Positions 1 through 62,234 are shown, counted from the stretch's first letter. The stretch: 64,000 nucleotides of DNA from Escherichia phage vB_EcoM_JE01 (PQ471460.1), one strand, 5' to 3'. The notes: a model not told the origin generated them from the letters alone. Translations and numbers: made by a program.

Positions 1-1149
1 GTTAAGTTTAATGATGATTTCTTAAACGAATTATCGAATTACACTGAATCTGTTCTTAATAGTCTGATCGAAGAATGTGAAAAAGCAGCTACACTTGCTA
101 ACACAAATCAGCTGAACCGTAAAATTCTTATTAACAGTCTTTATGGTGCTCTTGGTAACATTCATTTCCGCTATTATGATTTGCGAAATGCTACTGCTAT
201 CACAATTTTTGGTCAAGTTGGTATTCAGTGGATTGCTCGTAAAATTAATGAATACCTGAATAAGGTGTGTGGAACTGATGGTGAAGATTTCATCGCAGCA
301 GGTGATACTGATTCGGTATATGTCTGCGTAGATAAAGTTATTGAAAAAGTAGGTCTTGACCGCTTTAAAGAACAAAATGATTTAGTTGAATTCATGAATC
401 AGTTCGGTAAGAAAAAGATGGAACCTATGATTGATGCTGCATATCGTGAGTTATGTGATTATATGAATAACCGCGAGCATCTGATGCATATGGACCGTGA
501 AGCTATTTCTTGCCCTCCACTTGGTTCAAAGGGTGTCGGTGGATTTTGGAAAGCGAAAAAACGTTATGCTCTGAACGTTTATGATATGGAAGATAAGCGA
601 TTTGCTGAACCGCATCTAAAAATCATGGGTATGGAAACTCAGCAGAGTTCAACACCAAAAGCAGTACAAGAAGCTCTCGAAGAAAGTATTCGTCGTATTC
701 TTCAGGAAGGCGAAGAGTCTGTCCAAGAATACTACAAGAACTTTGAGAAAGAATATCGTCAACTTGATTATAAAGTTATTGCTGAAGTAAAAACCGCGAA
801 CGATATAGCGAAATATGATGATAAAGGTTGGCCAGGGTTTAAATGCCCGTTCCATATTCGTGGTGTACTAACTTATCGTCGAGCTGTTAGTGGTTTAGGT
901 GTAGCTCCAATTTTGGATGGAAATAAGGTAATGGTTCTTCCATTACGTGAGGGAAATCCATTTGGTGACAAGTGTATTGCTTGGCCGTCGGGCACAGAAC
1001 TTCCAAAAGAAATTCGTTCTGATGTACTGTCTTGGATTGACTACTCAACTTTGTTCCAAAAATCGTTTGTTAAACCGCTTGCGGGCATGTGTGAATCGGC
1101 AGGTATGGACTATGAGGAAAAAGCTTCGTTAGACTTCCTGTTTGGCTGA
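1..1149 (+). CDS. 43: DNA polymerase gp43, C-terminal part (5' end lies outside the window)
   Basis: Open frame from base 1; contains the family-B polymerase motif KILINSLYGALGN; position upstream of imm/42 matches T-even synteny. Confidence 0.9.
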   Translation, partial: VKFNDDFLNELSNYTESVLNSLIEECEKAATLANTNQLNRKILINSLYGALGNIHFRYYDLRNATAITIFGQVGIQWIARKINEYLNKVCGTDGEDFIAAGDTDSVYVCVDKVIEKVGLDRFKEQNDLVEFMNQFGKKKMEPMIDAAYRELCDYMNNREHLMHMDREAISCPPLGSKGVGGFWKAKKRYALNVYDMEDKRFAEPHLKIMGMETQQSSTPKAVQEALEESIRRILQEGEESVQEYYKNFEKEYRQLDYKVIAEVKTANDIAKYDDKGWPGFKCPFHIRGVLTYRRAVSGLGVAPILDGNKVMVLPLREGNPFGDKCIAWPSGTELPKEIRSDVLSWIDYSTLFQKSFVKPLAGMCESAGMDYEEKASLDFLFG

Positions 1150-1162
1150 TAGAATAAATCTA

Positions 1163-1183
1163 GGGACCTCCGGGTCCCTTTTT
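1163..1183 (+). terminator. Intrinsic terminator-like hairpin after gene 43
   Basis: GGGACC-TCCG-GGTCCC stem-loop followed by TTTTT. Confidence 0.6.
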
Positions 1184-1266
1184 CATACAAGTAATATAAA
1201 TCTATACTTAGGAAAAATAGATGATTCTGGACCTCTGGAATTCATTAAAAAATTTTTCACAAAACT

Positions 1267-1296
1267 GTTTACATCCCAGTTCCTTTGTGGTACTAT
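1267..1296 (+). promoter_or_regulatory. T4-type early promoter
   Basis: GTTTAC 1267-1272, 18-bp spacer, TGgTACTAT at 1288-1296; same ~55-bp element recurs at 28235, 31878, 48514. Confidence 0.6.
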
Positions 1297-1330
1297 ACAA
1301 CTATCAACTGATGCGGATTTGGAGAATGAA

Positions 1331-1711
1331 ATGAAAATCGCTATTTTGGTTATTGCATTGGGTCTTACTGGTTGTGTAGCTCAAGGACCAGTAGTAAATC
1401 AGTCTGATGTAGGAAAAATTGTAAACTGTTCAAGCAAATTTTATAATCCTAACGTCAAGTGTTATAAAGAGGCTCCAAAACAGACAGTAGAACAAATGCA
1501 GGCGAATTTTGACGAAGCTATTCGTCCAGATGAATCTGCACAAGCATATCGTAATTCAGATGTGATTACGCGTGAAGAAAAAATTGAAAACTACTGTGCT
1601 GAACTTTGGGCAAATTGGGCTAATAATTACCAATGGCGTACTGGTAAAAATGCTCCGATGGAGTATGTAGTAAATTCTTATAATTCATGTGTAAAAAATT
1701 TGACTAAGTGA
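1331..1711 (+). CDS. Hypothetical lipoprotein (126 aa)
   Basis: ATG at 1331 with GGAG RBS; N-terminus MKIAILVIALGLTGC is a signal peptide with lipobox cysteine; larger ORF 1142..1711 starts upstream of the promoter. Confidence 0.5.
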   Translation: MKIAILVIALGLTGCVAQGPVVNQSDVGKIVNCSSKFYNPNVKCYKEAPKQTVEQMQANFDEAIRPDESAQAYRNSDVITREEKIENYCAELWANWANNYQWRTGKNAPMEYVVNSYNSCVKNLTK

Positions 1712-1718
1712 GGAAAAC

Positions 1719-1970
1719 ATGGAAACTTTAGTAGCAGGTTCAATTTTTATGGTTTTAGTTTCAGGCGTGTTGGCTATTATTATATACATGCTTCCGTGGT
1801 TCATCGCCTTGATGCGTGGGTCAAAATCGACAGTAGGAATCTTTTTCACGTCTTTACTGTTTAACTGGTCAATTATTGGTTGGTTTATTACCTTTATTTG
1901 GTCAATTGCGGGTGAAACTAAAAAATCTGTACAGCAAAATCAAGTAATTATCATCAGAGAGAAGGAATGA
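1719..1970 (+). CDS. imm: Imm superinfection-immunity membrane protein (83 aa)
   Basis: 83-aa hydrophobic protein between 43 and 42, matching T4 Imm length and position. Confidence 0.8.
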   Translation: METLVAGSIFMVLVSGVLAIIIYMLPWFIALMRGSKSTVGIFFTSLLFNWSIIGWFITFIWSIAGETKKSVQQNQVIIIREKE

Positions 1971-2116
1971 AAAGCAAAATTTTAGCAGTATTGCTTTTAA
2001 TCTTGATGATTATAATAAGTATATACTATAGCGTAACAGTTCCTTGTATGATTCCAACGCTTATTATAGGGTGGAGTTTATTACTGTTACAAGTTAAATA
2101 TGAATGCATCAATTGA
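1967..2116 (+). CDS. Small hydrophobic protein (49 aa)
   Basis: ATGA overlap with imm stop; MKSKILAVLLLILMIIISIYY... single predicted TM segment; below ORF-track size cutoff. Confidence 0.4.
   Translation: MKSKILAVLLLILMIIISIYYSVTVPCMIPTLIIGWSLLLLQVKYECIN
1989..2016 (+). promoter_or_regulatory. MotA-dependent middle promoter candidate upstream of gene 42
   Basis: MotA-box-like TGCTT at 1992-1996, 14 nt gap, TATAAT at 2011-2016. Confidence 0.4.
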
Positions 2117-2123
2117 GGTTTAA

Positions 2124-2864
2124 ATGATTAACGATTATATGACAGTTGAAGAAATCCGTCTTGATTTGGGTCTTGCATTAAAGGAAAAAGATTTCGTAAT
2201 TGATAAAACCGGTGTTAAAACTATTGAAATTATTGGTGCATCATTTGTAGCAGATGAACCTTTTATTTTTGGCGCTCTTAATGATGAATACATTCAGCGT
2301 GAACTTGAATGGTATAAGTCTCAAAGTTTGTTTGTTAAAGATATTCCAGGTGAAACACCAAAGATTTGGCAGCAGGTAGCATCTTCTAAAGGCGAAATTA
2401 ACTCGAATTATGGTTGGGCCATCTGGTCAGAAGATAACTATGCCCAGTATGATATGTGTTTAGCTGAACTTGGTCAAAATCCTGATTCTCGACGCGGTAT
2501 CATGATTTATACTCGTCCATCCATGCAGTTTGACTACAATAAAGATGGTATGTCAGATTTCATGTGTACGAATACAGTACAGTATCTGATTCGTGATAAG
2601 AAAGTCAATGCAGTAGTAAGCATGCGTTCAAATGACGTGGTCTTCGGATTCCGTAATGATTATGCATGGCAAAAATACGTACTAGATAAATTAGTATCTG
2701 ATTTGAATGCAGGTGATTCAACTCGTCAGTATAAAGCAGGTTCTATTATATGGAATGTCGGAAGTCTTCATGTGTATTCCCGTCATTTTTATTTGGTTGA
2801 CCATTGGTGGAAAACTGGCGAAACTCATATTGCGAAAAAAGATTATAACGGTGAGTGGAAATGA
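2124..2864 (+). CDS. 42: dCMP hydroxymethylase gp42 (246 aa)
   Basis: Thymidylate-synthase-like protein of exactly 246 aa between imm and uvsX. Confidence 0.9.
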   Translation: MINDYMTVEEIRLDLGLALKEKDFVIDKTGVKTIEIIGASFVADEPFIFGALNDEYIQRELEWYKSQSLFVKDIPGETPKIWQQVASSKGEINSNYGWAIWSEDNYAQYDMCLAELGQNPDSRRGIMIYTRPSMQFDYNKDGMSDFMCTNTVQYLIRDKKVNAVVSMRSNDVVFGFRNDYAWQKYVLDKLVSDLNAGDSTRQYKAGSIIWNVGSLHVYSRHFYLVDHWWKTGETHIAKKDYNGEWK

Positions 2865-3703
2865 TTCAATTCGTAATTCCAAGTTATCAACGCGTAGGGG
2901 CAGTTTCTGCCCTTAATATGTTTCCATCTGATTATGAACCTCATATTGTAGTACGTAAACACGAAGAAAAAGCTTATTATGATGCTTATGGGTCTAGAGC
3001 TAAAATTATAACTATTCCTGATGATGTTAATGGAATTGCTGGTACTCGTAAAGCAATTACTGATATGTATGCAGGCCAACGAATCTGGATGATTGATGAT
3101 GATACTACTATTCGTATGAGTTCAATGCGAAAGAAAGATGATCGTCGTTGCGTAGATAAAATTAATCAATTAACTCGTGAACAGTTCTATGAATTGATTC
3201 AATACGTTGAAGATGCCATGGATTGTGGGTATTATCACGGTCATGCTCGTCTACCTATTTTTAAAATTACTTCATCTTGGGGTAATTATCGTGAAAATTC
3301 ATATGGATTCACGAATACCTGGTATGACCTTGGAAAACTTACAACAGAACAAATTGGGTATGGAAAAATTGATTTATGCGAAGATATGTATGCATTTCTC
3401 AATTTAATTAATCAAGGTTATCCGCATTTGGCCTTGTTCAAATATCTGGTTGTATCTGGAAAAGCACAAGCTCCTGGCGGATGTAGTTCAATTCGTAGTA
3501 ATTCAAAACATAATAGAGCGCTTGAGCAAATCAATAGAGAGTTTCCAGAGCAAGCTCGTTGGAAAACTTCTAATATTGAAAAACGAAAATCATTAGGTGA
3601 AGAAGACGAGCCATTAAAGGTTCTTCGCATGTGTGTTTCGCGCAAAGAAAAATCAGAAGCATTTCATAAGTTTAATGCTATTCATCCAATAGCAGTTGAT
3701 TAA
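2861..3703 (+). CDS. Glycosyltransferase, GT-A-like with DxD motif (280 aa); probable hydroxymethylcytosine sugar transferase
   Basis: ATG overlaps gene 42 stop (ATGA); N-terminal VIPSYQR and IWMIDDDTTI (DxD) motifs; occupies the slot between 42 and uvsX where T4 has beta-gt, but is not T4 beta-gt. Confidence 0.6.
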   Translation: MIQFVIPSYQRVGAVSALNMFPSDYEPHIVVRKHEEKAYYDAYGSRAKIITIPDDVNGIAGTRKAITDMYAGQRIWMIDDDTTIRMSSMRKKDDRRCVDKINQLTREQFYELIQYVEDAMDCGYYHGHARLPIFKITSSWGNYRENSYGFTNTWYDLGKLTTEQIGYGKIDLCEDMYAFLNLINQGYPHLALFKYLVVSGKAQAPGGCSSIRSNSKHNRALEQINREFPEQARWKTSNIEKRKSLGEEDEPLKVLRMCVSRKEKSEAFHKFNAIHPIAVD

Positions 3704-3727
3704 TGCCTAAATTTATTGTGTTATAAT
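3704..3727 (+). promoter_or_regulatory. Middle-promoter-like element upstream of uvsX
   Basis: TGCCT (one mismatch to MotA box TGCTT) at 3704-3708, 13 nt gap, TATAAT 3722-3727. Confidence 0.3.
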
Positions 3728-3780
3728 TACCCTATCTTTAACCAGTGAGGAAAATATAATGATGCCTATGGAAAAAATGA

Positions 3781-4962
3781 ATGTCTATTGCAGATTTAAA
3801 ATCCCGTTTGATTAAAGCTTCCACTTCTAAAATGACTGCTGAACTGACTACATCTAAATTCTTTAATGAAAAGGATGTAATTCGTACAAAAATCCCAATG
3901 CTTAATATTGCTATTTCCGGTGCGATTGATGGCGGTATGCAGTCTGGTTTAACCATTTTTGCAGGTCCTTCTAAACACTTTAAATCAAATATGTCTTTGA
4001 CTATGGTTGCGGCGTATTTGAACAAATATCCTGACGCGGTTTGTCTATTTTATGATAGCGAATTTGGTATTACTCCAGCTTATTTGCGATCCATGGGAGT
4101 TGACCCGGAACGAGTAATTCATACACCAATTCAGTCAGTTGAACAGCTGAAAATTGATATGGTGAATCAGCTTGAAGCTATTGAGCGCGGTGAAAAAGTT
4201 ATTGTATTCATCGACTCAATCGGTAATATGGCTTCTAAGAAAGAAACGGAAGATGCCTTGAATGAAAAATCTGTGGCAGATATGACTCGTGCTAAATCAC
4301 TGAAGTCATTATTCCGTATTGTTACTCCTTATTTTAGCATTAAAAATATTCCATGTGTTGCGGTTAACCATACAATTGAAACAATTGAAATGTTTAGTAA
4401 AACCGTGATGACAGGTGGTACAGGCGTAATGTATTCGGCTGATACTGTATTCATTATCGGTAAGCGCCAGATTAAAGATGGTTCCGATCTTCAGGGATAT
4501 CAATTTGTTCTAAATGTAGAAAAATCTCGTACCGTCAAAGAAAAAAGTAAATTCTTTATTGATGTTAAATTTGACGGCGGCATCGATCCTTATTCTGGAT
4601 TGTTAGATATGGCTCTTGAATTAGGGTTTGTAGTAAAACCTAAAAATGGTTGGTATGCTCGTGAATTTCTTGACGAAGAAACTGGCGAGATGATTCGCGA
4701 AGAAAAATCTTGGCGTGCAAAAGATACCAATTGCACTACATTCTGGGGTCCTTTATTTAAGCATCAACCATTCCGAGATGCTATTAAACGTGCTTATCAG
4801 TTAGGTGCTATTGATAGTAATGAAATTGTTGAAGCTGAAGTCGACGAATTGATTAACTCAAAGGTTGAAAAATTTAAATCTCCAGAAAGTAAAAGTAAAT
4901 CAGCAGCTGATTTAGAAACTGACCTAGAACAGTTAAGTGATATGGAAGAATTTAATGAATAA
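3781..4962 (+). CDS. uvsX: UvsX recombinase (RecA-like), 393 aa
   Basis: Near-identical over most of its length to T4 UvsX as I recall it; Walker A GPSKHFKS. Confidence 0.95.
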   Translation: MSIADLKSRLIKASTSKMTAELTTSKFFNEKDVIRTKIPMLNIAISGAIDGGMQSGLTIFAGPSKHFKSNMSLTMVAAYLNKYPDAVCLFYDSEFGITPAYLRSMGVDPERVIHTPIQSVEQLKIDMVNQLEAIERGEKVIVFIDSIGNMASKKETEDALNEKSVADMTRAKSLKSLFRIVTPYFSIKNIPCVAVNHTIETIEMFSKTVMTGGTGVMYSADTVFIIGKRQIKDGSDLQGYQFVLNVEKSRTVKEKSKFFIDVKFDGGIDPYSGLLDMALELGFVVKPKNGWYAREFLDEETGEMIREEKSWRAKDTNCTTFWGPLFKHQPFRDAIKRAYQLGAIDSNEIVEAEVDELINSKVEKFKSPESKSKSAADLETDLEQLSDMEEFNE

Positions 4963-5299
4963 AGATGATTTAGATTTAGATCTAGAAATTATCGACGAAT
5001 CCCCCTCTTCGGAGGGGGAAGAAGAAAGAAAAGAACGCCTTTTTAATGAATCTCTTAAGATAATTAAATCTGCCATGGAAAATGTTATCCAGGAGATTGT
5101 CATTAAACTAGAAGACGGTTCTACACACATTGTGTATGTGACAAAATTAGATTGGGTTGATGGAAAAGTCGTAATGGACTTTGCTGTTCTTGACCAAGAA
5201 AGAAAAGCTGAGTTAGCTCCTCATGTAGAAAAATGTATTACAATGCAACTACAAGATGCATTTAATAAAAGGTCAAAGAAAAAATTTAAATTCTTTTAA
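4955..5299 (+). CDS. 40: gp40-position protein (head assembly), 114 aa
   Basis: ATG at 4955 overlapping uvsX stop; located between uvsX and 41 as in T4; acidic N-terminus. Confidence 0.5.
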   Translation: MNKDDLDLDLEIIDESPSSEGEEERKERLFNESLKIIKSAMENVIQEIVIKLEDGSTHIVYVTKLDWVDGKVVMDFAVLDQERKAELAPHVEKCITMQLQDAFNKRSKKKFKFF

Positions 5300-5308
5300 G
5301 GAGTAAGT

Positions 5309-6736
5309 GTGGTAGAAATTATTCTTTCTCATCTTATATTTGATCAAGCTTATTTTTCAAAAGTTTGGCCATATATGGATTCAGAATATTTTGAAAGTGG
5401 TCCAGCTAAAAATACATTCAAATTAATTAAATCTCATGTTAATGAGTACCATAGCGTTCCATCTATTAATGCGTTAAATGTTGCATTAGAAAATAGTTCA
5501 TTTACTGAAACAGAATATTCTGGTGTAAAAACACTTATTTCAAAACTAGCTGATTCTCCAGAAGACCACAGCTGGTTAGTAAAAGAAACAGAAAAATATG
5601 TTCAGCAAAGGGCGATGTTTAACGCCACATCTAAAATAATTGAAATTCAAACCAATGCTGAGCTTCCTCCAGAAAAACGAAATAAGAAAATGCCGGATGT
5701 AGGTGCTATTCCTGACATTATGCGCCAAGCATTATCAATTTCATTTGATAGCTACGTTGGCCATGATTGGATGGATGACTATGAAGCACGTTGGCTATCT
5801 TATATGAATAAAGCTCGTAAGGTTCCATTTAAACTCAAAATTCTAAATAAAATTACTAAAGGCGGAGCTGAAACTGGAACACTGAATGTTTTAATGGCTG
5901 GTGTTAACGTCGGTAAGTCATTAGGTCTGTGTTCATTGGCAGCAGATTATTTGCAGCTCGGACATAATGTTCTTTACATTTCAATGGAAATGGCAGAAGA
6001 AGTCTGTGCTAAGCGTATTGACGCTAATATGCTCGATGTTTCTCTTGATGACATTGATGATGGGCATATTTCTTACGCTGAGTATAAAGGAAAAATGGAA
6101 AAATGGCGTGAGAAATCTACTCTTGGACGTTTAATCGTTAAACAGTATCCTACTGGTGGAGCAGACGCTAATACATTTCGTTCTCTTTTGAACGAATTGA
6201 AGCTCAAGAAGAATTTTGTTCCAACAATCATTATTGTTGACTATCTAGGTATTTGTAAATCTTGTCGCATCAGAGTTTATTCAGAAAATAGTTACACAAC
6301 TGTTAAAGCTATCGCAGAGGAATTGCGTGCTCTGGCTGTTGAAACCGAAACTGTTCTTTGGACTGCAGCACAGGTTGGTAAACAAGCTTGGGATTCTTCT
6401 GATGTTAACATGAGCGATATTGCAGAATCCGCCGGTCTTCCAGCAACAGCTGATTTTATGCTTGCGGTCATTGAAACCGAGGAGTTAGCAGCGGCTGAAC
6501 AACAACTCATTAAGCAAATCAAATCACGATATGGTGATAAGAATAAATGGAATAAGTTTTTGATGGGTGTTCAAAAAGGAAATCAGAAATGGGTAGAAAT
6601 TGAACAAGATTCTACTCCAACTGAAGTGAACGAAGTAGCAGGTTCACAGCAGATTCAGGCTGAACAGAACCGCTATCAAAGAAATGAATCGGCTCGAGCT
6701 CAGTTAGATGCTTTAGCAAACGAATTAAAATTTTAG
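5309..6736 (+). CDS. 41: Replicative DNA helicase gp41 (DnaB family), 475 aa
   Basis: 475 aa, Walker A GVNVGKS, RecA-like C-terminal domain; synteny. Confidence 0.9.
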   Translation: MVEIILSHLIFDQAYFSKVWPYMDSEYFESGPAKNTFKLIKSHVNEYHSVPSINALNVALENSSFTETEYSGVKTLISKLADSPEDHSWLVKETEKYVQQRAMFNATSKIIEIQTNAELPPEKRNKKMPDVGAIPDIMRQALSISFDSYVGHDWMDDYEARWLSYMNKARKVPFKLKILNKITKGGAETGTLNVLMAGVNVGKSLGLCSLAADYLQLGHNVLYISMEMAEEVCAKRIDANMLDVSLDDIDDGHISYAEYKGKMEKWREKSTLGRLIVKQYPTGGADANTFRSLLNELKLKKNFVPTIIIVDYLGICKSCRIRVYSENSYTTVKAIAEELRALAVETETVLWTAAQVGKQAWDSSDVNMSDIAESAGLPATADFMLAVIETEELAAAEQQLIKQIKSRYGDKNKWNKFLMGVQKGNQKWVEIEQDSTPTEVNEVAGSQQIQAEQNRYQRNESARAQLDALANELKF

Positions 6737-6765
6737 TTTACAAGCTGACAAGACTATGGTATAGT
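6736..6765 (+). promoter_or_regulatory. T4-type early promoter (IR-flanked -10)
   Basis: GTTTAC 6736-6741, 18-bp spacer, TATAGT 6760-6765; 9-bp inverted repeat ACAAGACTA/TAGTCTTGT at 6748-6756 and 6765-6773. Confidence 0.6.
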
Positions 6766-6794
6766 AGTCTTGTTGGTTAAATGAGGAGATTGTT

Positions 6795-6977
6795 ATGGAA
6801 TTGGTAAAGGTAGTTTTTATGGGGTGGTTTAAGAATGAAAGCATGTTTACTAAAGAAATCACAATGATGAAAGATGACGTTCAATGGGCTACTACTCAAT
6901 ATGCTGAAGTTAATAAAGCATTAGTTAAAGCTTTCATTGATGACAAGAAAGTATGCGAAGTGGATTGCCGAGGGTAA
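6795..6977 (+). CDS. dmd: Dmd antitoxin-like protein (60 aa)
   Basis: 60-aa ORF immediately downstream of gene 41, matching T4 Dmd (61.5) length and position. Confidence 0.7.
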   Translation: MELVKVVFMGWFKNESMFTKEITMMKDDVQWATTQYAEVNKALVKAFIDDKKVCEVDCRG

Positions 6978-8684: not shown

Positions 8685-9713
8685 ATGTCATCAATACCTT
8701 GGATTGATAATGAGTTTGCATACCGTGCATTAGCTCATTTACCTAAATTCACACAAGTAAATAATAGTTCAACTTTTAAATTACGGTTTAGATGCCCTGT
8801 TTGTGGAGATTCAAAAACCGACCAAAATAAAGCCCGTGGATGGTATTATGGCGATAATAATGAAGGAAATATTCATTGTTATAACTGTAACTATCATGCA
8901 CCAATCGGAATATATTTAAAGGAGTTTGAACCTGATTTATATCGTGAGTATATCTTTGAAATAAGAAAAGAAAAAGGTAAAAGTCGTCCAGTAGAAAAAC
9001 CTAAAGAACTTCCTAAACAACCCGAGAAGAAAATAATTAAATCTCTTCCGTCATGCATTAGATTAGATAAACTGGCGGAAGACCATCCAATTATAAAATA
9101 CGTAAAAGCTCGTTGTATTCCAAAGGATAAATGGAAATATCTTTGGTTTACAACTGAATGGCCTAAATTAGTTAATAGTATAGCACCAGGAACATATAAA
9201 AAGGAAATACCTGAGCCTCGTCTTGTTATTCCAATTTATAATGCTAATGGAAAAGCTGAGTCTTTTCAAGGACGTGCATTAAAGAAAGATGCTCCCCAAA
9301 AATATATCACCATCAAAGCTTATCCTGAGGCAACAAAAATTTATGGTGTTGAACGAGTTAAAGATGGTGATGTATATGTTCTAGAAGGACCTATAGATTC
9401 ACTTTTTATTGAAAATGGTATAGCTATTACGGGTGGTCAATTAGACCTAGAAATTGTTCCATTTAAAGATAGACGTGTATGGGTTTTAGATAATGAACCT
9501 CGTCACCCTGACACTATTAAACGAATGACTAAATTAGTTGATGCAGGAGAAAGGGTTATGTTTTGGGATAAATCTCCCTGGAAATCAAAAGATGTCAATG
9601 ATATGATTAGAAAGGAAGGTGCAACCCCTGAACAAATTATGGAATATATGAAAAATAATATTGCCCAAGGGCTGATGGCTAAAATGCGGCTATCTAAATA
9701 TGCTAAGATTTAA
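8685..9713 (+). CDS. 61: DNA primase gp61, 342 aa
   Basis: 342 aa; zinc-ribbon CPVCGDS...CYNCN and TOPRIM-like core. Confidence 0.9.
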   Translation: MSSIPWIDNEFAYRALAHLPKFTQVNNSSTFKLRFRCPVCGDSKTDQNKARGWYYGDNNEGNIHCYNCNYHAPIGIYLKEFEPDLYREYIFEIRKEKGKSRPVEKPKELPKQPEKKIIKSLPSCIRLDKLAEDHPIIKYVKARCIPKDKWKYLWFTTEWPKLVNSIAPGTYKKEIPEPRLVIPIYNANGKAESFQGRALKKDAPQKYITIKAYPEATKIYGVERVKDGDVYVLEGPIDSLFIENGIAITGGQLDLEIVPFKDRRVWVLDNEPRHPDTIKRMTKLVDAGERVMFWDKSPWKSKDVNDMIRKEGATPEQIMEYMKNNIAQGLMAKMRLSKYAKI

Positions 9714-9980: not shown

Positions 9981-10631
9981 GTGAATTACCAAAAAATTTA
10001 CTCGGCTTTAATTACAAAAGCTAAATGCCGGCATCTTGGTGGATATAAAGAACGCCATCATATAATTCCTAGATGTATGGGAGGAGCAGATGACAAAAAC
10101 AATCTTGTTGAGTTAACTGCGCGTGAGCATTTTATAGCTCATAGATTATTAACCAAAATATATCCAGATGTGAGAGGATTGCATTATGCTGTAAATTTAA
10201 TGCGATATAATAAAGGTGTTAAATTAACAAGTAGATTAATAGAAACCCTTAAAATTCAAAACTCTGTTCTTTTCTCGGGTGAAAATAATCCTAGATATGG
10301 CAAGCCGTCATGGATTAAAGGCAAAAAGACCCCAGAAGAAACTAAAGCCAAAATGCGTCTAGCTCATAAAGGTAAAATTATATCCGATGAAGCCAAGGCT
10401 AATATGAGTAAAGCCCGAAAAGGAAGATTTAGCGGTAAAAATTCACCTCGATATTGTTTACCGAATCCAAGACGTGGTGAGATATGGAATTCGTATGATT
10501 CGCTTTACGAGTTGTGGGTTTATAATAATAGACCTAAGCGCACAAAATTTAATAAAATAGCTGTCAAGGCAGGTTATCCTAATATCTGCTATAGACATAT
10601 GATAGAAAACTTCATAAGAAAGGAAAAATAA
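9981..10631 (+). CDS. HNH homing endonuclease (216 aa, GTG start)
   Basis: HNH motif ERHHIIPRCMGGADDKNNLVELTAREHFIAH plus NUMOD-like repeats (ENNPRYGKP, KAKMRLAHKGK, KANMSKARKG). Confidence 0.7.
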   Translation: MNYQKIYSALITKAKCRHLGGYKERHHIIPRCMGGADDKNNLVELTAREHFIAHRLLTKIYPDVRGLHYAVNLMRYNKGVKLTSRLIETLKIQNSVLFSGENNPRYGKPSWIKGKKTPEETKAKMRLAHKGKIISDEAKANMSKARKGRFSGKNSPRYCLPNPRRGEIWNSYDSLYELWVYNNRPKRTKFNKIAVKAGYPNICYRHMIENFIRKEK

Positions 10632-10632
10632 C

Positions 10633-11151
10633 ATGCCACATTTCAACGAATGTAGTCATCTGATCGAAGGCGCTGATAAAGCTCAAAATGAATACTGGGA
10701 TATTCTCGGTGACGAAAAAGACCCGCTGCAAGTTATGCTTGATATGCAGAAATCTCTGCAAGTTCGTTTAGCTAAAGATAAACCTGAATATAATCGTCAT
10801 CCTGATGATTTGGCTACTGCTGGTGAAGTTGTTGATTGGCTGCGTAATCAGAAAGATTATATTGACGATGAATTCCGTGAACTTCTGACATCTCTTGGTG
10901 GTATGAGCAATGGCGAAAAAGATGCATCTGCTGTATGGAAGCCTTGGAAAGCTCAACATGGTGAACGCCGTGAAACTCTAATTACCGATTTGTCTCCGCA
11001 AGACCAGTTGGAAATTAAATTCGAAATGATTGATATTCTTCATTTCGTTCTGAACATGTTCCAAGGTCTTGGTCTTACAGCTGAAGAAATCTTTAAACTT
11101 TATTATCTGAAAAATGCTGAAAACTTCGCTCGTCAAGACCGAGGTTATTAA
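10633..11151 (+). CDS. 56: dCTPase / dCTP pyrophosphatase gp56 (172 aa)
   Basis: MazG-like protein of T4 gp56 length, upstream of soc. Confidence 0.85.
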   Translation: MPHFNECSHLIEGADKAQNEYWDILGDEKDPLQVMLDMQKSLQVRLAKDKPEYNRHPDDLATAGEVVDWLRNQKDYIDDEFRELLTSLGGMSNGEKDASAVWKPWKAQHGERRETLITDLSPQDQLEIKFEMIDILHFVLNMFQGLGLTAEEIFKLYYLKNAENFARQDRGY

Positions 11152-21919: not shown

Positions 21920-23740
21920 GTGATGATTAAGAATGAAATTAAAATTCTGAGCGATATTGAACATATCAAAAAGCGTAGCGGCATGTATATTGGCTCTTCT
22001 GCTAATGAAATGCATGAGCGCTTTCTGTTTGGTAAATGGGAAAGTGTTCAGTATGTACCTGGTCTTGTTAAGCTTATTGATGAAATTATTGATAACTCAG
22101 TAGATGAAGGTATTCGTACTAAGTTTAAATTCGCAAATAAAATTAATGTTACTATCAAAAACAATCAAGTAACAGTTGAAGATAACGGTCGTGGTATTCC
22201 ACAGGCGATGGTTAAAACACCTACCGGTGAAGAAATTCCTGGTCCTGTTGCTGCATGGACTATTCCAAAAGCAGGTGGTAACTTTGGTGATGATAAAGAA
22301 CGCGTCACTGGCGGTATGAACGGTGTTGGTTCTAGTTTAACTAACATTTTTTCTGTGATGTTTGTCGGTGAAACTGGCGACGGTCAAAATAATATTGTAG
22401 TTCGCTGCTCGAATGGCATGGAAAATAAATCGTGGGAAGATATTCCTGGAAAATGGAAAGGAACACGTGTTACTTTCATACCTGATTTTATGTCATTTGA
22501 AACTAATGAGCTATCTCAAGTTTATCTTGACATTACACTAGATCGTCTCCAGACACTTGCAGTAGTTTATCCTGATATTCAATTTACCTTTAATGGTAAA
22601 AAGGTTCAGGGTAATTTTAAGAAATATGCACGCCAATATGATGAACATGCTATCGTTCAAGAACAAGAAAATTGTTCTATTGCGGTTGGTCGTTCACCGG
22701 ATGGTTTTCGTCAATTAACATACGTCAATAACATTCATACTAAGAATGGTGGCCATCACATTGACTGCGTTATGGATGATATTTGTGAAGACCTTATTCC
22801 ACAAATCAAACGTAAGTTCAAAATTGATGTAACTAAAGCACGTGTTAAAGAATGTTTGACTATCGTTATGTTTGTTCGTGATATGAAAAACATGCGATTT
22901 GATTCTCAAACTAAAGAGCGTTTGACTTCTCCATTTGGTGAAATTCGTAGTCATATTCAGCTTGATGCTAAAAAGATTTCACGTGCTATTTTAAATAATG
23001 AAGCAATTTTAATGCCAATCATTGAAGCTGCCTTGGCTCGTAAATTGGCGGCAGAAAAAGCAGCAGAAACTAAAGCAGCTAAAAAGGCTTCTAAAGCTAA
23101 GGTTCATAAACATATTAAAGCGAATCTTTGTGGTAAAGATGCTGATACTACTCTTTTCTTGACTGAGGGTGATTCTGCTATTGGATATCTTATTGATGTT
23201 CGTGATAAAGAACTTCATGGTGGTTATCCATTGCGTGGTAAAGTTCTTAACAGTTGGGGCATGTCATATGCTGATATGCTTAAAAACAAAGAACTATTTG
23301 ATATTTGCGCAATCACTAGATTAGTTCTTGGTGAAAAAGCCGAAAACTTGAATTATCATAATATTGCAATTATGACCGATGCTGACCATGATGGTCTAGG
23401 AAGCATTTATCCTTCTCTGCTCGGATTTTTTAGTAATTGGCCAGAATTGTTTGAACAAGGAAGAATTCGCTTTGTCAAAACTCCTGTAATCATCGCTCAG
23501 GTCGGCAAAAAACAAGAATGGTTTTATACAGTCGCTGAATATGAGAGTGCCAAAGATGCTCTACCTAAACATAGCATCCGTTATATTAAAGGACTTGGCT
23601 CTTTGGAAAAATCTGAATATCGTGAGATGATTCAAAATCCAGTATATGATGTTGTTAAACTTCCTGAGAATTGGAAAGAGCTTTTTGAAATGCTCATGGG
23701 AGATAATGCTGACCTTCGTAAAGAATGGATGAGCCAGTAG
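21920..23740 (+). CDS. 39: Topoisomerase II large (GyrB-like) subunit gp39, single uninterrupted 606-aa gene
   Basis: GHKL ATPase N-terminus, TOPRIM motifs EGDSA and MTDADHDG in one continuous ORF; no separate gene 60 between it and rIIA. Confidence 0.85.
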   Translation: MMIKNEIKILSDIEHIKKRSGMYIGSSANEMHERFLFGKWESVQYVPGLVKLIDEIIDNSVDEGIRTKFKFANKINVTIKNNQVTVEDNGRGIPQAMVKTPTGEEIPGPVAAWTIPKAGGNFGDDKERVTGGMNGVGSSLTNIFSVMFVGETGDGQNNIVVRCSNGMENKSWEDIPGKWKGTRVTFIPDFMSFETNELSQVYLDITLDRLQTLAVVYPDIQFTFNGKKVQGNFKKYARQYDEHAIVQEQENCSIAVGRSPDGFRQLTYVNNIHTKNGGHHIDCVMDDICEDLIPQIKRKFKIDVTKARVKECLTIVMFVRDMKNMRFDSQTKERLTSPFGEIRSHIQLDAKKISRAILNNEAILMPIIEAALARKLAAEKAAETKAAKKASKAKVHKHIKANLCGKDADTTLFLTEGDSAIGYLIDVRDKELHGGYPLRGKVLNSWGMSYADMLKNKELFDICAITRLVLGEKAENLNYHNIAIMTDADHDGLGSIYPSLLGFFSNWPELFEQGRIRFVKTPVIIAQVGKKQEWFYTVAEYESAKDALPKHSIRYIKGLGSLEKSEYREMIQNPVYDVVKLPENWKELFEMLMGDNADLRKEWMSQ

Positions 23741-35333: not shown

Positions 35334-35363
35334 AGACCCTCCTTTTAAGGATATTTATTCAAA

Positions 35364-36143
35364 TTATACTCTTGGACCATATATTGCTCCAACGTTTTGC
35401 CATGTCGGTGTAGACCCTATGACGGCATAACCAGCAGCACCACCGTTATATTCTGTACCGTTCCCATGAATATTACATCTACCTCCTGCTGAGCCAACTT
35501 CACCGCCATTCCCGCCTGTATATACCCAAAGAGACCCCTCACCGACAGATCCTGCACCCGGAGCGGAAATGGTGCCAGCGGTTGCACCAGCACCCATATG
35601 AGAGGAAGACCCGCCAGCACCGAATGGGCGACCACCACCACCACCAAATGATAGTCTACCGTAGTTACCGCCGCCGCCACCGCCACCGCCGCCTGCAATA
35701 GCTCCACCATTATTAATTCTTAGTCTCCCACCAATATCGTTTTGAATACAATGACCTCCAGCTGAGCCAGGACTATTGCTACCGCCATTACCGCCACGTC
35801 CATACATCGTTACGCCGTGTATATTCAACTGAACATATTCATTCGGTGTATCTCCGTACATGAAGAATAAAGGAACATCTTTAGAATATGATACTAAATC
35901 TCCAGTGATATTAAACACTATAGGTGTACTACCTGCCTCAAAACATCTATCTCGGAACCATTGACCATTGAAGTTATGGTCTGCTCCAAGCGTGTGAATA
36001 ATTTCTCTTGAGCGACCTGCAAATTGACTCATCCAGCAAGGAACACCCAATCTTAATTGACCAGCTGCTTGACTCATCCAGCGCTGACCCGTTTCATTTA
36101 CGGCTGAACTTCCAATCCAGCCAGGAACTCCAACTACTGCCAT
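35364..36143 (-). CDS. 38: gp38 tail-fibre adhesin, T2 type (259 aa) with glycine-rich motifs
   Basis: Poly-Gly tracts ([29 protein letters not shown]) characteristic of T2-like gp38 adhesins rather than the shorter T4 gp38 chaperone. Confidence 0.8.
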
Positions 36144-36158
36144 AATTTATACTCCAAA

Positions 36159-36173
36159 GGGGGCATTTCCCCC
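36159..36173 (-). other. GC hairpin between gene 37 stop and gene 38 start
   Basis: GGGGG-AAATG-CCCCC on the minus-strand transcript, immediately upstream of gene 38 RBS. Confidence 0.5.
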
Positions 36174-36179
36174 TTGTTG

Positions 36180-39100
36180 TTAGAATTTAAAATATTTACT
36201 AATTTTGCGAGCAATTTTAGTAAAGAGAGGCGTTTTCAATTCTTTAATTTCTTCACTCATTTCCTGAATAGCCTTAATTAAAAGCGCGTTCACAGCAGAG
36301 TTAGAAATTGTTAAAATTTCTTCCGGGTTATCCTGAGATCCGACACTAGAAGTGCTAACAGCTTCCGGTAATACTTCTTGCAAATCCTGTGCGATAATAC
36401 CAATCTCATGGCCGATAACTTCGCGGTCAGAAAGAGATTTAACTTTATCATAGGTTTTAACTTTGAGTTTATTTACCTTATCCACCGCATTTTCTTCGTA
36501 ATCTTCAACATTAATTTTCAGACGACGATCGGAACGAATATAAACATCGTTAAAGTTTCCGTTACCAGTGGCATGAAATTCTCCACTTGCATGGAATTGA
36601 TAATCAGCACCCTGAACATGAAGAACCGCTGCCGCAGTATTATTACTATCACCGGGACAATGAACGTCCATAGCAGCGATGTAGTTACGCCCCCAATCAA
36701 CCGCTTTCCAAATAGCATGAGCACTATCAACGCTTTGTTGACAGTCAACCAACAAACCAGCAGGTCGGTCTCTCCATGCAACATATGCACCACCAGAAAC
36801 CTCACCACGGATAAGTCCTTGATCTGCGGCATAAGGAACACGCCCTTCCAGTTGAATCATTGCGCCCTTAAAGTGATGACTAAATGGTCCACCGTGGTTA
36901 TTGCGAATATGTAAAATACCCTCATCTGTAGCCCAGATAACAGCCTTTTCTGCCTCGCTATCATCTCTAAACCAGACGCGGCGAGCACCAGCAGAGTTTT
37001 TGATAGTAATCCCGGAAGGTCCATGCACAGTAAAAGCGCCAGCAACATCAAACATCAAACTGTTATCTGTCCTACGTTCAGTATAGAAGTGATAACCTTT
37101 GGAATCACCGACTTCCATCACTGCCGAGCGACCAACTTCTGAATTTCCCCAATTATTGATATGGAATTGTTCAGAGCTATTATTCATCTGATTTAGGTAT
37201 AATGCACCATCAGTAAATGTTTCGCCAAAGAAACGAGTTTTAATTGCACCTGTCGCTAAAGTACGTTCAGTGGAAAAATGAGCGCCTTGACTATCTTCTA
37301 ACTGGATGATGTTATCACGAGCATTATTACTATCACCCCAATGGTTAAATTTAAAATAATCTCGTGATCCTAAACGTCCGGCGTCAAAAGTCATCACGCC
37401 TTTCATGTTAATATCACCGTCGACCAGAACATTATCCGGGAAGTTAACAGTACCGTCTTGATTAAAACGAGACGTATGGCCTTGTGAACCATCTTCTTTC
37501 AGATGATGAATAACGAATGTACCTGAACTAATCTCAGTACCTAAAGACCAAACGGCTTTACCATTTAAAAACTTCTGTTTAACAATAGGATAATATTTGC
37601 TTATAGCATCATCATCAATTTCCTGGAAAATAGGAGCCGCTTGAGCATATTGAATGTCATAACCACCAGCGCCTGCGCCATGACCAGTAAATTTAATATA
37701 GCCGTTTGCTGCGAACGTATTGTAACTTGATTGTAAATCTGGAATAGTAACTTTACCGGTATCTAAAGCCATACTAAACGGGCGAAGTGGACCGATATCG
37801 CCATGTTTACCTTCACCATAAGCAGTTGGAATAATATGAAGACTTCCTTCTGAACGTCTAAAAATGGCTCCATAATCTGCGTTCCAAATACGAAGAGCAT
37901 TCACTGCTCCAGATGAAATTTCACCTGTTGTGTGAACTCCTCTATCTCCAGCAGTAACACCAGATGATTCAAATGAACCATTAACGTTCATTTCTACTTC
38001 GCCAGTAGTAAGTCTTTGAATATAGCTCATCCAGCTAGTTGCATCAGAAATTTCCATAATGTTTTTACGGATACCTCCGCTTGGATCAACAAACGTATTA
38101 CCCCAAACTTTAATATCCATATTATCAACCGAGCTGTATCCTGTTGTGTTACCTCTAAACATCAGCGTAGAAGAATTATTACGACCATCAATATTAACAG
38201 AACCACCAATAACGTCAATATTACCAGGAGTGACTAACAAACCGCCGTGAGTATTAATGTTTGTAGTACCTTTACCACGGAAATAGTGATGATAATTACC
38301 GCCTTGGTAATATCCTAAAAGAGTTTGACCATCTCCAAACGCGTTATTATCGTGATATGTCACGACAGTAGCAAGAGCATAGTTTTCAGTTGGAGGAGTC
38401 GTTAAATCGGTTCCGTTAGTAGAATATCCAGCTACAAATTTTCTTAGGCTAGTTGTTTCACTAGGACTAAATAAAAATGTTTTCGTTCCATTATTGACGC
38501 TGAAATAATATCCATCCTGATGCCATTTAAATCCAGTATCATTATCTCCAAGAGAAATTGAAGCAGTCCCTAATTCAGAATATCCTTTAGAGCCACCTGG
38601 AAGACCTATAGAAACAGAATGGCCTGCTTTCAATCCACCAGACCAGGTAAACGACCAAAGATAGGCATCTAACCCGTCACCAGCGTACCAGGTTATCCCG
38701 TCGTTATCTTTAACTTCATGGAATATACCAGATCCTACGGCATTTCGCATAACACGGAGGTGGTTAATAGCCGTTTCGCTTTCTGCCAATGGAGTGTTAT
38801 TTGCTAATGAATAGATATCATAATCGCCTGTCTTCTTCCCATTTGTAATAACTTTATCGGTCAGAATTTGTGGAGACGAAATAGATTTCCATGCTGATAC
38901 TTCAGGTGAAGTAAATAGGCCACTACCTGAAAATGCATAGGTGCTTTCACTTCCTGCAGCATAATCTTGAACCCTGATATTAAGTACTTGTGTAGTTAAT
39001 CCATCATTAGCCGGGGCATAAATGATTCCGCGTTCGCGGTTATTGCCATCGAAAAAACGAACATGTGATGTACCTGAACTTTTTGTAATAAGTTCTCCAC

Positions 39101-39422
39101 CCTCAGTCATAATCTGCCCGGCAGCAATAATATCGCGAGTTACTCGAGCAATACCAGTTAAATTAAAATTACCTGTCTGAGTGAAAGTGCCATTTAAAGT
39201 ATAATCACCAGTTTGATTATAGTTTCCTATATGAATAACATTCCCGTCAATGCTACCACCTTTAGCAAAACCAAGATCAATGATATTTCCTTGGTCGTCT
39301 TTAGTAAAAAGTACGCGGTCTTTTAAGTTTATAGCCAATTCACCTTCGGCTAATACTGAAGCGGCAGGACGTGCTCCTGCAGTTTTGCTTCTTTTAAATT
39401 GTATTTGTTTTAAAGTAGCCAT
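36180..39422 (-). CDS. 37: Long tail fibre distal subunit gp37 (1080 aa)
   Basis: 1080-aa Gly/Ser/Thr-rich fibre protein downstream of 36 and upstream of 38. Confidence 0.85.
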   Translation of the reverse strand: MATLKQIQFKRSKTAGARPAASVLAEGELAINLKDRVLFTKDDQGNIIDLGFAKGGSIDGNVIHIGNYNQTGDYTLNGTFTQTGNFNLTGIARVTRDIIAAGQIMTEGGELITKSSGTSHVRFFDGNNRERGIIYAPANDGLTTQVLNIRVQDYAAGSESTYAFSGSGLFTSPEVSAWKSISSPQILTDKVITNGKKTGDYDIYSLANNTPLAESETAINHLRVMRNAVGSGIFHEVKDNDGITWYAGDGLDAYLWSFTWSGGLKAGHSVSIGLPGGSKGYSELGTASISLGDNDTGFKWHQDGYYFSVNNGTKTFLFSPSETTSLRKFVAGYSTNGTDLTTPPTENYALATVVTYHDNNAFGDGQTLLGYYQGGNYHHYFRGKGTTNINTHGGLLVTPGNIDVIGGSVNIDGRNNSSTLMFRGNTTGYSSVDNMDIKVWGNTFVDPSGGIRKNIMEISDATSWMSYIQRLTTGEVEMNVNGSFESSGVTAGDRGVHTTGEISSGAVNALRIWNADYGAIFRRSEGSLHIIPTAYGEGKHGDIGPLRPFSMALDTGKVTIPDLQSSYNTFAANGYIKFTGHGAGAGGYDIQYAQAAPIFQEIDDDAISKYYPIVKQKFLNGKAVWSLGTEISSGTFVIHHLKEDGSQGHTSRFNQDGTVNFPDNVLVDGDINMKGVMTFDAGRLGSRDYFKFNHWGDSNNARDNIIQLEDSQGAHFSTERTLATGAIKTRFFGETFTDGALYLNQMNNSSEQFHINNWGNSEVGRSAVMEVGDSKGYHFYTERRTDNSLMFDVAGAFTVHGPSGITIKNSAGARRVWFRDDSEAEKAVIWATDEGILHIRNNHGGPFSHHFKGAMIQLEGRVPYAADQGLIRGEVSGGAYVAWRDRPAGLLVDCQQSVDSAHAIWKAVDWGRNYIAAMDVHCPGDSNNTAAAVLHVQGADYQFHASGEFHATGNGNFNDVYIRSDRRLKINVEDYEENAVDKVNKLKVKTYDKVKSLSDREVIGHEIGIIAQDLQEVLPEAVSTSSVGSQDNPEEILTISNSAVNALLIKAIQEMSEEIKELKTPLFTKIARKISKYFKF

Positions 39423-50778: not shown

Positions 50779-51327
50779 ATGAAACAATACCAAGATTTAA
50801 TTAAAGACATTTTTGAAAATGGCTATGAAACCGATGACCGAACAGGCACAGGAACAATTGCTTTGTTCGGTACTAAATTACGCTGGGATTTAACTAAAGG
50901 TTTTCCTGCGGTAACAACTAAGAAGCTCGCCTGGAAAGCTTGCATTGCTGAGCTAATATGGTTTTTATCGGGAAGCACAAATGTCAATGATTTACGATTA
51001 ATTCAGCATGATTCATTAATTCAAGGCAAAACAGTCTGGGATGAAAATTACGAAAATCAAGCAAAAGATTTAGGATACCATAGCGGTGAACTTGGTCCAA
51101 TTTATGGAAAACAGTGGCGTGATTTTGGTGGTGTAGACCAAATTGTAGAAGTTATTGATCGTATTAAAAAACTACCAAATGATAGGCGTCAAATTGTTTC
51201 TGCGTGGAATCCAGCTGAACTTAAATATATGGCATTACCGCCTTGTCATATGTTCTATCAGTTTAATGTGCGTAATGGCTATTTGGATTTGCAGTGGTAT
51301 CAAAGAAGTGTAGATGTTTTCTTGGGT
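50779..51327 (+). CDS. td: Thymidylate synthase, exon 1 (183 codons)
   Basis: TS N-terminal domain; reading frame hits the in-frame TAA that is the first triplet of the group I intron. Confidence 0.9.
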
Positions 51328-52343
51328 TAATTGAGGCCTGAGTATAAGGTGACTTATACTTGTAATCTATCTAAACGGGGAAACTCTCTAGTAGACAATC
51401 CCGTGCTAAATTGTAGGACCACCCTTTAATAAATACCTTTATATTTAAAGAGGTATTTATGAAAAGTGGAATTTATCAGATTAAAAATACTTTAAACAAT
51501 AAAGTATATGTAGGAAGTGCTAAAGATTTTGAAAAGAGATGGAAGAGGCATTTTAAAGACTTAGAAAAAGGATGCCATTCTTCTATAAAACTTCAAAGGT
51601 CTTTTAACAAACACGGTAATGTGTTTGAATGCTCTATTTTGGAAGAAATTCCATATGAGAAAGATTTGATTATTGAACGAGAAAATTTTTGGATTAAAGA
51701 GCTTAATTCTAAAATTAATGGATATAATATTGCTGATGCAACGTTTGGTGATACATATTCTGTGCATCCATTAAAAGAAGAAATTATTAAGAAACGTTCT
51801 GAAACTGTTAAAGCTAAGATGCTTAAGCTTGGAACTGATGGTCGGAAAGCTCTTTACGGTAAACCCGGAAGTAAAAACGGACGATGGAATCCAGAAAAAC
51901 ACAAATTTTGTAAGTGCGGTGTTCGTATACAAACTTCTGCTTATACTTGTAGTAAATGCAGAAATCGTTCAGGTGAAAATAATTCATTCTTTAATCATAA
52001 GCATTCAGACATAACTAAATCTAAAATATCAGAAAAGATGAAAGGTAAAAAGCCTAGTAATATTAAAAAGATTTCATGTGATGGGGTTATTTTTGAATGT
52101 GCAGCTGACGCAGCTAGACATTTTGAAATTTCATCCGGATTAGTTACTTACCGTGTAAAATCTGATAAGTGGAATTGGTTCTACATAAATGCCTAACGAC
52201 TATCCCTTTAGGGAGTAGGGTCAAGTGACTCGAAACGATAGACAACTTGCTTTAACAAGTTGGAGATATAGTCTGCTCTGTATGGTGACATGCAGCTGGA
52301 TATAATTCCGGGATAAGATTAACGACCTTATCTGAACATAATG
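51328..52343 (+). mobile_element. td group I self-splicing intron (1016 nt) carrying the I-TevI homing endonuclease gene
   Basis: Begins TAATTGAGGCCTGAGTATAAGGTGACTTATAC..., ends ...GGGATAAGATTAACGACCTTATCTGAACATAATG; TS frame resumes at 52344; length and sequence match the T4 td intron as I recall it. Confidence 0.9.
51459..52196 (+). CDS. I-TevI GIY-YIG homing endonuclease (245 aa), intron-encoded
   Basis: GIY-YIG motif GIYQIKN...KVYVGSA; 245 aa inside the td intron. Confidence 0.9.
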   Translation: MKSGIYQIKNTLNNKVYVGSAKDFEKRWKRHFKDLEKGCHSSIKLQRSFNKHGNVFECSILEEIPYEKDLIIERENFWIKELNSKINGYNIADATFGDTYSVHPLKEEIIKKRSETVKAKMLKLGTDGRKALYGKPGSKNGRWNPEKHKFCKCGVRIQTSAYTCSKCRNRSGENNSFFNHKHSDITKSKISEKMKGKKPSNIKKISCDGVIFECAADAARHFEISSGLVTYRVKSDKWNWFYINA

Positions 52344-61706: not shown

Positions 61707-62234
61707 ATGAGCGAATGGTTTGAAGAAGGTAAGGTTTATCGCTTTAAAGCTGGATATAAAGATATTTTTAATGAAACTTGCGGGGCTAATAAACGAATTG
61801 CCCAGTTTATTGGGGAAAATTCATTTAAAGTAAAAATAGATCCTGCGAAAAATGTTATTAGCATTAAACGCGAAATTGATGATTGTTGGTATAAAGCTGT
61901 TGATGTAATGGGTGAATCCTATAAAGTTAGCCCGTTATTTTCAATTGCCTATATGTTAGAATATTCTTTTTTCGAAGAAGTTCAAAAAGATGATTCTGTC
62001 AGTAAATTTGAAATTAAAGCTGATAAAGAAATTAAGTGGAAAGTAGTAGGTATTACTGGTTGTATGTTCTATATCTATGCTCAAACTGATACGAAGGAAG
62101 AAGCTAAACAGAAAGCTCTAGAATATCTTGAAGAGTATGAAGAAGGTCCGGTAATGATTACTCAAGATGCTGAATTAGTTTCTGTCAAATTAGTTAAAAA
62201 CGTTGAAAGTAAGGAGCTAGGATCAACATGCTAA
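61707..62234 (+). CDS. Hypothetical protein (175 aa)
   Basis: ORF with GAGGAAA RBS. Confidence 0.45.
   Translation: MSEWFEEGKVYRFKAGYKDIFNETCGANKRIAQFIGENSFKVKIDPAKNVISIKREIDDCWYKAVDVMGESYKVSPLFSIAYMLEYSFFEEVQKDDSVSKFEIKADKEIKWKVVGITGCMFYIYAQTDTKEEAKQKALEYLEEYEEGPVMITQDAELVSVKLVKNVESKELGSTC

Follow-up and report, generated by a model that had tools for sequence, protein, structure and literature searches.

Escherichia phage vB_EcoM_JE01 (PQ471460.1) was analysed over a stretch of 64,000 nucleotides, hereafter the window. It is a T4-like (Tequatrovirus) genome segment that shares 95-97% identity with numerous Escherichia and Shigella phages across 25 kb. The gene under study, ba-gt, is an unbroken open reading frame on the plus strand that encodes 280 amino acids followed by a stop codon at 3701-3703. 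Its earliest possible start is a GTG at 2855 (282 amino acids), and the ATG at 2861 yields exactly 280 residues. This ATG overlaps the TGA stop codon of gene 42 as ATGA and is the same start as annotated in T2 and other phages. A first-pass annotation had proposed a 280-residue protein between gene 42 and uvsX. The reading frame, its ATG and the Pfam matches of the flanking genes bear this out, and both motifs quoted there occur in the translation, VIPSYQR at residues 5-11 and IWMIDDDTTI at residues 75-84. Upstream of gene 42 lie imm, imm.1 (DUF5481) and the 3' end of gene 43, and uvsX is followed by genes 40 and 41. The gene 42 region of the window shares 94% DNA identity with T4. The GC content of ba-gt (35.3%) gives no compositional sign of foreign origin when set against that of the 64-kb window (35.5%).

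Table 1. Features at the ba-gt locus, with positions counted from the first base of the window.
Feature	Position	Strand	Basis
Gene 42, dCMP hydroxymethylase, 246 aa	2124-2864	+	Pfam Thymidylat_synt E = 1e-15; annotation in matching records
Cassette without T4 DNA counterpart	2847-3792	.	Local blastn against T4 and T4 annotation
ba-gt / ggt / TAGT CDS, probable beta-glucosyl-HMC-alpha-glucosyltransferase	2861-3703	+	ORF, PF20691, PHROG 842, T2/T6 identity
IPSYQR (aa 6-11), at and just beyond strand beta-1 in the nucleotide-binding half of the GT-A fold	2876-2893	+	Alignment; model strand E3-7
DDD (aa 79-81), DxD-type acidic motif immediately following strand beta-4 (aa 74-77)	3095-3103	+	Alignment, model
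Conserved loop, aa 132-149, low confidence	3254-3307	+	pLDDT <50
E174-D175 (CEDMY), candidate catalytic base region	3380-3385	+	Alignment; start of helix 174-184 in model
GGCSSIR (aa 206-212), conserved family motif	3476-3496	+	Alignment
uvsX, 393 aa, directly downstream of ba-gt	3781-4962		T4_UVSX_C E = 5e-39

Local blastn aligns window positions 1-2846 with T4 at 94% identity and positions 3793-6848 at 92.5%, and finds no T4 DNA match for the stretch in between. T4 carries b-gt (351 aa) and the homing endonuclease gene segA from gene 42 to uvsX; T2 and T6 carry a gene of the window type there. The stretch is a clean cassette swap in which some 1.9 kb of T4 DNA with b-gt and segA, from the last codons of gene 42 to the first codons of uvsX, has been replaced. 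The gene had been assigned to the slot where T4 has its beta-glucosyltransferase, and T4 b-gt and segA do occupy this interval; it had also been taken not to be that GT-B enzyme. The latter also holds. Kinship with T4 b-gt is rejected on a BLASTP E value of 3.3 and on fold, GT-A versus GT-B, and there are no homologues of T4 b-gt (tblastn) or T4 a-gt and no second TAGT copy within the 64-kb window. The GT-A fold of TAGT and the synteny with T4 beta-gt have been described already (PMC13216743).

The gene 42-uvsX interval is a hotspot for extra cargo. In phage G4498 (NC_054918) an additional 213-residue hypothetical ORF (3576-4217) separates gene 42 from ba-gt, and in T4 segA (3071-3736) follows b-gt. 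The window has neither of these genes.

Several possible expression signals surround ba-gt. The mRNA at its start (window 2850-2915, plus strand) has a stable predicted fold (91 nt, -23.4 kcal/mol, z = -3.1) in which a Shine-Dalgarno-like GGUGAG and the AUG pair with downstream sequence. This region includes a 9-bp hairpin at 2895-2915 with the same DNA sequence in T2 and T6. Such a fold would be compatible with translational coupling of ba-gt to gene 42, although the conserved DNA may just as well reflect conservation of the protein. Between the ba-gt stop codon and uvsX, positions 3704-3727 (plus strand) hold TGCCTAA, 11 nt and then TATAAT. This resembles a T4 MotA-dependent middle promoter, with a Mot-box-like element about 30 nt upstream, a -10 hexamer and no -35 element. 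A promoter and terminator scan of 1100-5400 gave counts at the level of shuffled sequence; the sole elements flagged were a terminator downstream of gene 43 and a hairpin within the ba-gt ORF.

The ba-gt protein matches Pfam PF20691 (TET-associated glycosyltransferase, TAGT) with 39.1 bits against a cutoff of 27.5 (E = 1e-9, profile positions 2-205 of 205) and PHROG 842, 'beta-glucosyl-HMC-alpha-glucosyltransferase', with E = 3e-88 (positions 4-269 of 270). Searches of NCBIfam gave no match. Over its full length the protein is 98% identical to that of T2 (AP018813, LC348380) and 97% identical to that of T6 (MH550421, AP018814). Megablast found the gene in 479 phage records, 421 of which are 95-99% identical, and tblastn found homologues in 689 records. 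The matching records adjoin a dCMP hydroxymethylase gene and are nearly always labelled beta-glucosyl-HMC-alpha-glucosyltransferase or 'glucosyl transferase'; about 470 annotated Tequatrovirus records have a protein of at least 95% identity in the same slot. Among 5.8 billion clustered proteins only 12 clusters match, all of the TAGT type, and the nearest has 485 members (representative P0001).

Because the PF20691 and PHROG 842 matches, the 97-98% identity, synteny, distribution, motifs, the alpha-gt of relatives and published LC-MS data all agree, we conclude that 2861-3703 very probably encodes the T2/T6-type beta-glucosyl-HMC-alpha-glucosyltransferase (Pfam TAGT). The identities and family matches uphold the first-pass suggestion of a T2/T6-type glucosyltransferase in this slot. 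Adjacency to gene 42 had further suggested a hydroxymethylcytosine (hmC) sugar transferase, in agreement with the match to TAGT, a DNA-modification family. The ba-gt of the window is a standard, intact and already known family member in its standard position; published work and hundreds of annotated genomes already cover the gene, its type of fold, the slot it shares with T4 beta-gt and its connection to gentiobiosyl-hmC. Winkler and Rueger reportedly cloned and sequenced the T2 and T6 genes (Nucleic Acids Res 1993).

Public naming of these genes is muddled. The GT-B beta-gt of RB55, 100% identical to that of T4, is labelled 'beta-glucosyl-HMC-alpha-glucosyl-transferase', and the GT-A gene of the window type is labelled 'b-gt' in T2 (LC348380), PP01, RB10 and RB27. 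Annotation text alone therefore cannot separate the GT-B beta-gt from the GT-A enzyme.

No solved structure is detectable by sequence for the ba-gt protein, and the TAGT family has neither a solved structure nor a sequence-detectable solved relative. An AlphaFold2 model was built on a family alignment of 11 sequences that reaches down to 30% identity (mean pLDDT 80.3, pTM 0.81). The N-terminal half of the model consists of alternating strands and helices, and structure matches to it indicate a GT-A fold with a conserved acidic DxD-type motif. A Foldseek search against viral models returned phage proteins annotated as TAGT, and the best structural matches are cellular GT2-type enzymes that act on lipid-linked glycans, teichoic acid or polysaccharides, at 7-17% identity. 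The GT-A signature read from the motifs in the first-pass annotation gains support from these matches and from the invariance of DDD in the family alignment. As modelled, ba-gt is a single-domain GT-A enzyme that resembles inverting GT2 transferases, a resemblance that is structural only. A published AF3 model of TAGT is also GT-A and sister to GT2 (PMC13216743).

Such top matches could point to an enzyme that glycosylates something other than DNA, for example host LPS or cell-wall polymers in the manner of prophage Gtr-type or teichoic-acid GT2 transferases. We regard this as extremely improbable. The likeness is at the level of the fold, no Pfam GT2 family (Glycos_transf_2) matches at E<=0.1, and the strong homology to a non-DNA glycosyltransferase that had been named as a possible counterargument was not found. 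The protein instead matches a family of DNA-modifying enzymes, and its gene is translationally abutted to the dCMP hydroxymethylase gene and co-occurs with DNA alpha- or beta-gt. Furthermore, gene presence tracks with gentiobiosyl-hmC detected by LC-MS (PMC13390438).

The family alignment highlights candidate active-site residues. I6, P7, S8, Y9 and R11 are invariant across the 11 sequences, as are D79, D80 and D81. By analogy with GT-A enzymes in general, IPSYQR may have a role in UDP binding and DDD may bind metal and the UDP-sugar. D175 is invariant and E174 nearly so, and one of this pair could be the catalytic base, as in inverting GT2 enzymes. G206, G207, S209 and R212 are invariant in the third motif. 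The low-confidence loop includes the invariant P132 and N146, and S147, G149, F150, T151 and N152 are nearly invariant in this region. The loop is possibly a mobile active-site or DNA-acceptor loop.

An enzyme that adds a sugar to alpha-glucosyl-hmC requires a partner that supplies this acceptor. There is no alpha-gt within the 64-kb window; its T4 position, near genes 47 and 55, falls upstream of base 1, so that relatives are the basis for assuming that the acceptor is made. In G4498, the nearest relative, alpha-gt occupies the T4 position and ba-gt lies between gene 42 and uvsX. Tequatrovirus-level matches to alpha-gt number about 500, which parallels the TAGT count, and approximately 436 records carry a gene that is ~91% identical to that of T4. 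Only 29 records have a T4-type beta-gt at >=90% identity. We infer that this genome also encodes an alpha-gt and that the second glucose brings a biological benefit.

Orthology, fold, motifs and synteny are observed for the gene itself, and the product chemistry comes from the literature on T2, T6 and related phages. Phages T2 and T6 encode only alpha-GT, and their TAGT glucosylates alpha-glucosyl-hmC to 5-gentiobiosyl-methylcytosine (PMC13216743, citing Lehman and Pratt 1960, Kornberg et al. 1961, and Kuno and Lehman 1962). Ten Tequatroviruses of the Durham collection that encode alpha-GT and TAGT without beta-GT contain hmC, alpha-glucosyl-hmC and alpha-gentiobiosyl-hmC (alpha-5-gent-mdC) by LC-MS and no beta-glucosyl-hmC (PMC13390438). 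TAGT is described there as only 'likely responsible' for the second glucose, and the biological function of TAGTs is called 'yet-to-be defined' in PMC13216743.

The pathway in this phage would begin with hm-dCMP made by the gene 42 product, from which phage DNA would be built with hydroxymethylcytosine. An alpha-glucosyltransferase encoded outside the window would then alpha-link one glucose to most hmC after replication. The ba-gt enzyme would transfer a second glucose from UDP-glucose in beta-1,6 linkage onto the first, which would give gentiobiosyl-hmC. In this scheme UDP-glucose and a divalent cation would be bound at the N-terminal IPSYxR strand and D79-D81, and an acidic residue of the conserved ED pair (E174/D175) would take the proton from the 6-OH of the glucose on the DNA. 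As the donor is alpha-linked, inversion would lead to a beta product, and an inverting GT-A enzyme that uses UDP-alpha-glucose thus fits the beta-1,6 linkage. With the larger sugar, the DNA would presumably be better protected from host nucleases or glycosylases directed at hmC or mono-glucosyl-hmC.

The presence of ba-gt helps to predict the state of the phage DNA, namely hmC, alpha-glucosyl-hmC and gentiobiosyl-hmC with no beta-glucosyl-hmC. Such a state matters for how sensitive the DNA is to type IV restriction (McrBC, GmrSD/BrxU), to a Brig1-type glycosylase and to restriction enzymes, as well as for its behaviour in sequencing and cloning.

The extent of gentiobiosylation varies between close relatives. 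Gentiobiosyl-hmC reportedly accounts for ~5% of the cytidines in T2 and for 72% in T6 (quoted in PMC13390438) despite enzymes that are ~98% identical in our alignment, and the gentiobiosylated fraction of hmC in this phage is consequently not predictable. The T2 and T6 figures also leave room for an orthologue that contributes little here, as in T2, with DNA that is essentially alpha-mono-glucosylated and otherwise carries free hmC. The window protein is slightly nearer to T2 than to T6, which would favour such a reading. We nevertheless consider it unlikely. The window ORF has no lesion and keeps Arg11 like T6 and the cluster representative P0001, where T2 has His at this otherwise invariant position (AP018813 1783-2625; LC348380 2295-3137). 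Moreover, all ten Durham phages measured have substantial gentiobiosyl-hmC, with ~40% of the modified cytosines in this form in one group and roughly two-thirds in the second (PMC13390438). An active T2/T6-type enzyme remains the preferred reading, and His11 of T2 in the otherwise invariant IPSYxR is possibly tied to the low level in that phage. Given Arg11, a high level of gentiobiosyl-hmC in vB_EcoM_JE01 is plausible as a hypothesis.

The T6 records differ from the window and from each other. In MH550421 (2397-2423 region), a TAG amber codon occupies codon 10, where the others have CAA or CAG (Gln10), and for this reason 'ggt' is annotated from Met20 with 261 residues. In AP018814 (3135-3974), codon 10 is intact and one GAT of the DDD run is missing, which gives 279 residues and the string WMIDDTTI. 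Both changes fall in family-invariant regions, and the window copy has neither. They may be laboratory-stock mutations or sequencing errors. Each of the two T6 changes is potentially disabling, which hints at a gene that is not needed, or is selected against, in laboratory hosts. We speculate, with considerable doubt, that natural alleles set the extent of gentiobiosylation and that the window allele, with Gln10, Arg11 and an intact DDD, could be the fully active wild form. If so, it would lead to high gentiobiosylation, similar to T6 or the Durham phages.

Acceptor use in the wider family appears more varied. Karamvirus, Moon/Merlin, Gelderlandvirus-type and Serratia phages encode a TAGT homologue directly beside a beta-gt that is about 49-53% identical to that of T4; examples are CC31 (GU323318 22120-24020), Merlin, STP4-a and Muldoon. 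Many of the homologues that are 47-65% identical to the window protein, including those at ~63-65%, pair with beta-gt instead of alpha-gt. Such pairing implies a different disaccharide or an enzyme indifferent to linkage, and the acceptor linkage, and so the product, probably differs in these phages. Acceptor specificity across the TAGT family is therefore not uniform or not strict. TAGT beside beta-gt is an open question also in PMC13216743.

These pairings, in Karamvirus, Moon, Muldoon and Gelderlandvirus-type phages, raise the alternative that the ba-gt product uses a different acceptor, sugar or linkage, for example beta-glucosyl-hmC, bare hmC or another nucleotide sugar. TAGTs also occur alone in many phages (PMC13216743), so that members must differ in acceptor, and sequence cannot reveal sugar specificity. 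For the window gene we give this alternative only a slight chance, as an identity of 97-98% to T2/T6 with all family-invariant residues makes a change of specificity very unlikely, neither the window nor the slot has a beta-gt, and the relatives have alpha-gt. At this level of identity, the assignment of ba-gt as a T2/T6-type enzyme appears unaffected by the non-uniform acceptor specificity of the wider family.

Other loci in the window depart from T4 as well. Between gene 61 (8685-9713) and gene 56 (10633-11151), the T4 dam slot holds a 216-residue HNH/NUMOD3 ORF (9981-10631, plus strand) that is homing-endonuclease-like and 40% identical to T4 MobE. Homologues of Dam and SegF were not found within the 64-kb window, and the phage probably has no T4-type Dam methyltransferase in the usual place. 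The topoisomerase large subunit (21920-23740, plus strand) is encoded by a single 606-residue ORF that aligns with T4 gp39 (aa 1-473) and then gp60 (aa 1-114); the T4 split, with its mobA insertion and gene 60 translational bypass, is thus absent. The td gene (50779-52196, plus strand) has an intron with I-TevI at 51459-52193 that is 97% identical to that of T4. The nrdB gene (55529-56707, plus strand) is apparently intronless, a single 392-residue ORF with no I-TevIII match. Furthermore, positions 61707-62234 (plus strand) hold a 175-residue ORF without a Pfam match. It falls in a segment of 519 bp that shows no DNA similarity to the T4 pieces compared, and on both sides the sequence matches the cd.2-cd.5 region of T4, downstream of pseT.

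The tail-fibre genes differ from those of T4 too. The gp38 protein (259 aa, 35364-36143; PF05268, PF21721) is a T2-type tail-fibre adhesin and not a T4-type assembly chaperone, and most of gene 37 at 35359-39235 (minus strand) has no DNA match to T4. Together these suggest T2/T6-like receptor recognition, consistent with the T2/T6-like DNA sugar genes.

Among known systems, T4 b-gt shares with ba-gt the slot 3' of gene 42, dependence on UDP-glucose and a beta linkage on phage hmC DNA. It differs in its GT-B fold (PMC13216743) and in its acceptor, which is the hydroxymethyl group of hmC and not an attached glucose. The a-gt of T4, T2 and T6 belongs to the same hypermodification pathway, supplies the acceptor of ba-gt and co-occurs with the window-type gene across Tequatrovirus and Klebsiella T4-like phages. 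In contrast to ba-gt, it is an unrelated GT-B enzyme that forms an alpha linkage and is encoded ~13 kb away near genes 47 and 55.

Cellular GT-A/GT2-type enzymes such as WrtF (9omh), AvpGT (9jma), RmlT (8bz4), TarP (6h1j) and BcsA (4p00) resemble ba-gt at 7-17% identity. Their acceptors are lipid-linked glycans, teichoic acid or polysaccharides, whereas the acceptor of ba-gt would be a sugar on duplex DNA, and ba-gt has no membrane or accessory domain. Closer are the TAGT homologues of Karamvirus, Moon, Muldoon, Gelderlandvirus-type and Klebsiella T4-like phages, which are 47-65% identical and adjoin gene 42. Closest of all is the ggt of T2 and T6, with 97-98% identity, the same 280 residues, the same place between gene 42 and uvsX and the same ATGA overlap with gene 42. 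The T2 protein differs from that of the window by seven substitutions, at positions 11, 19, 23, 33, 92, 101 and 251, and the window protein retains all family-invariant residues.
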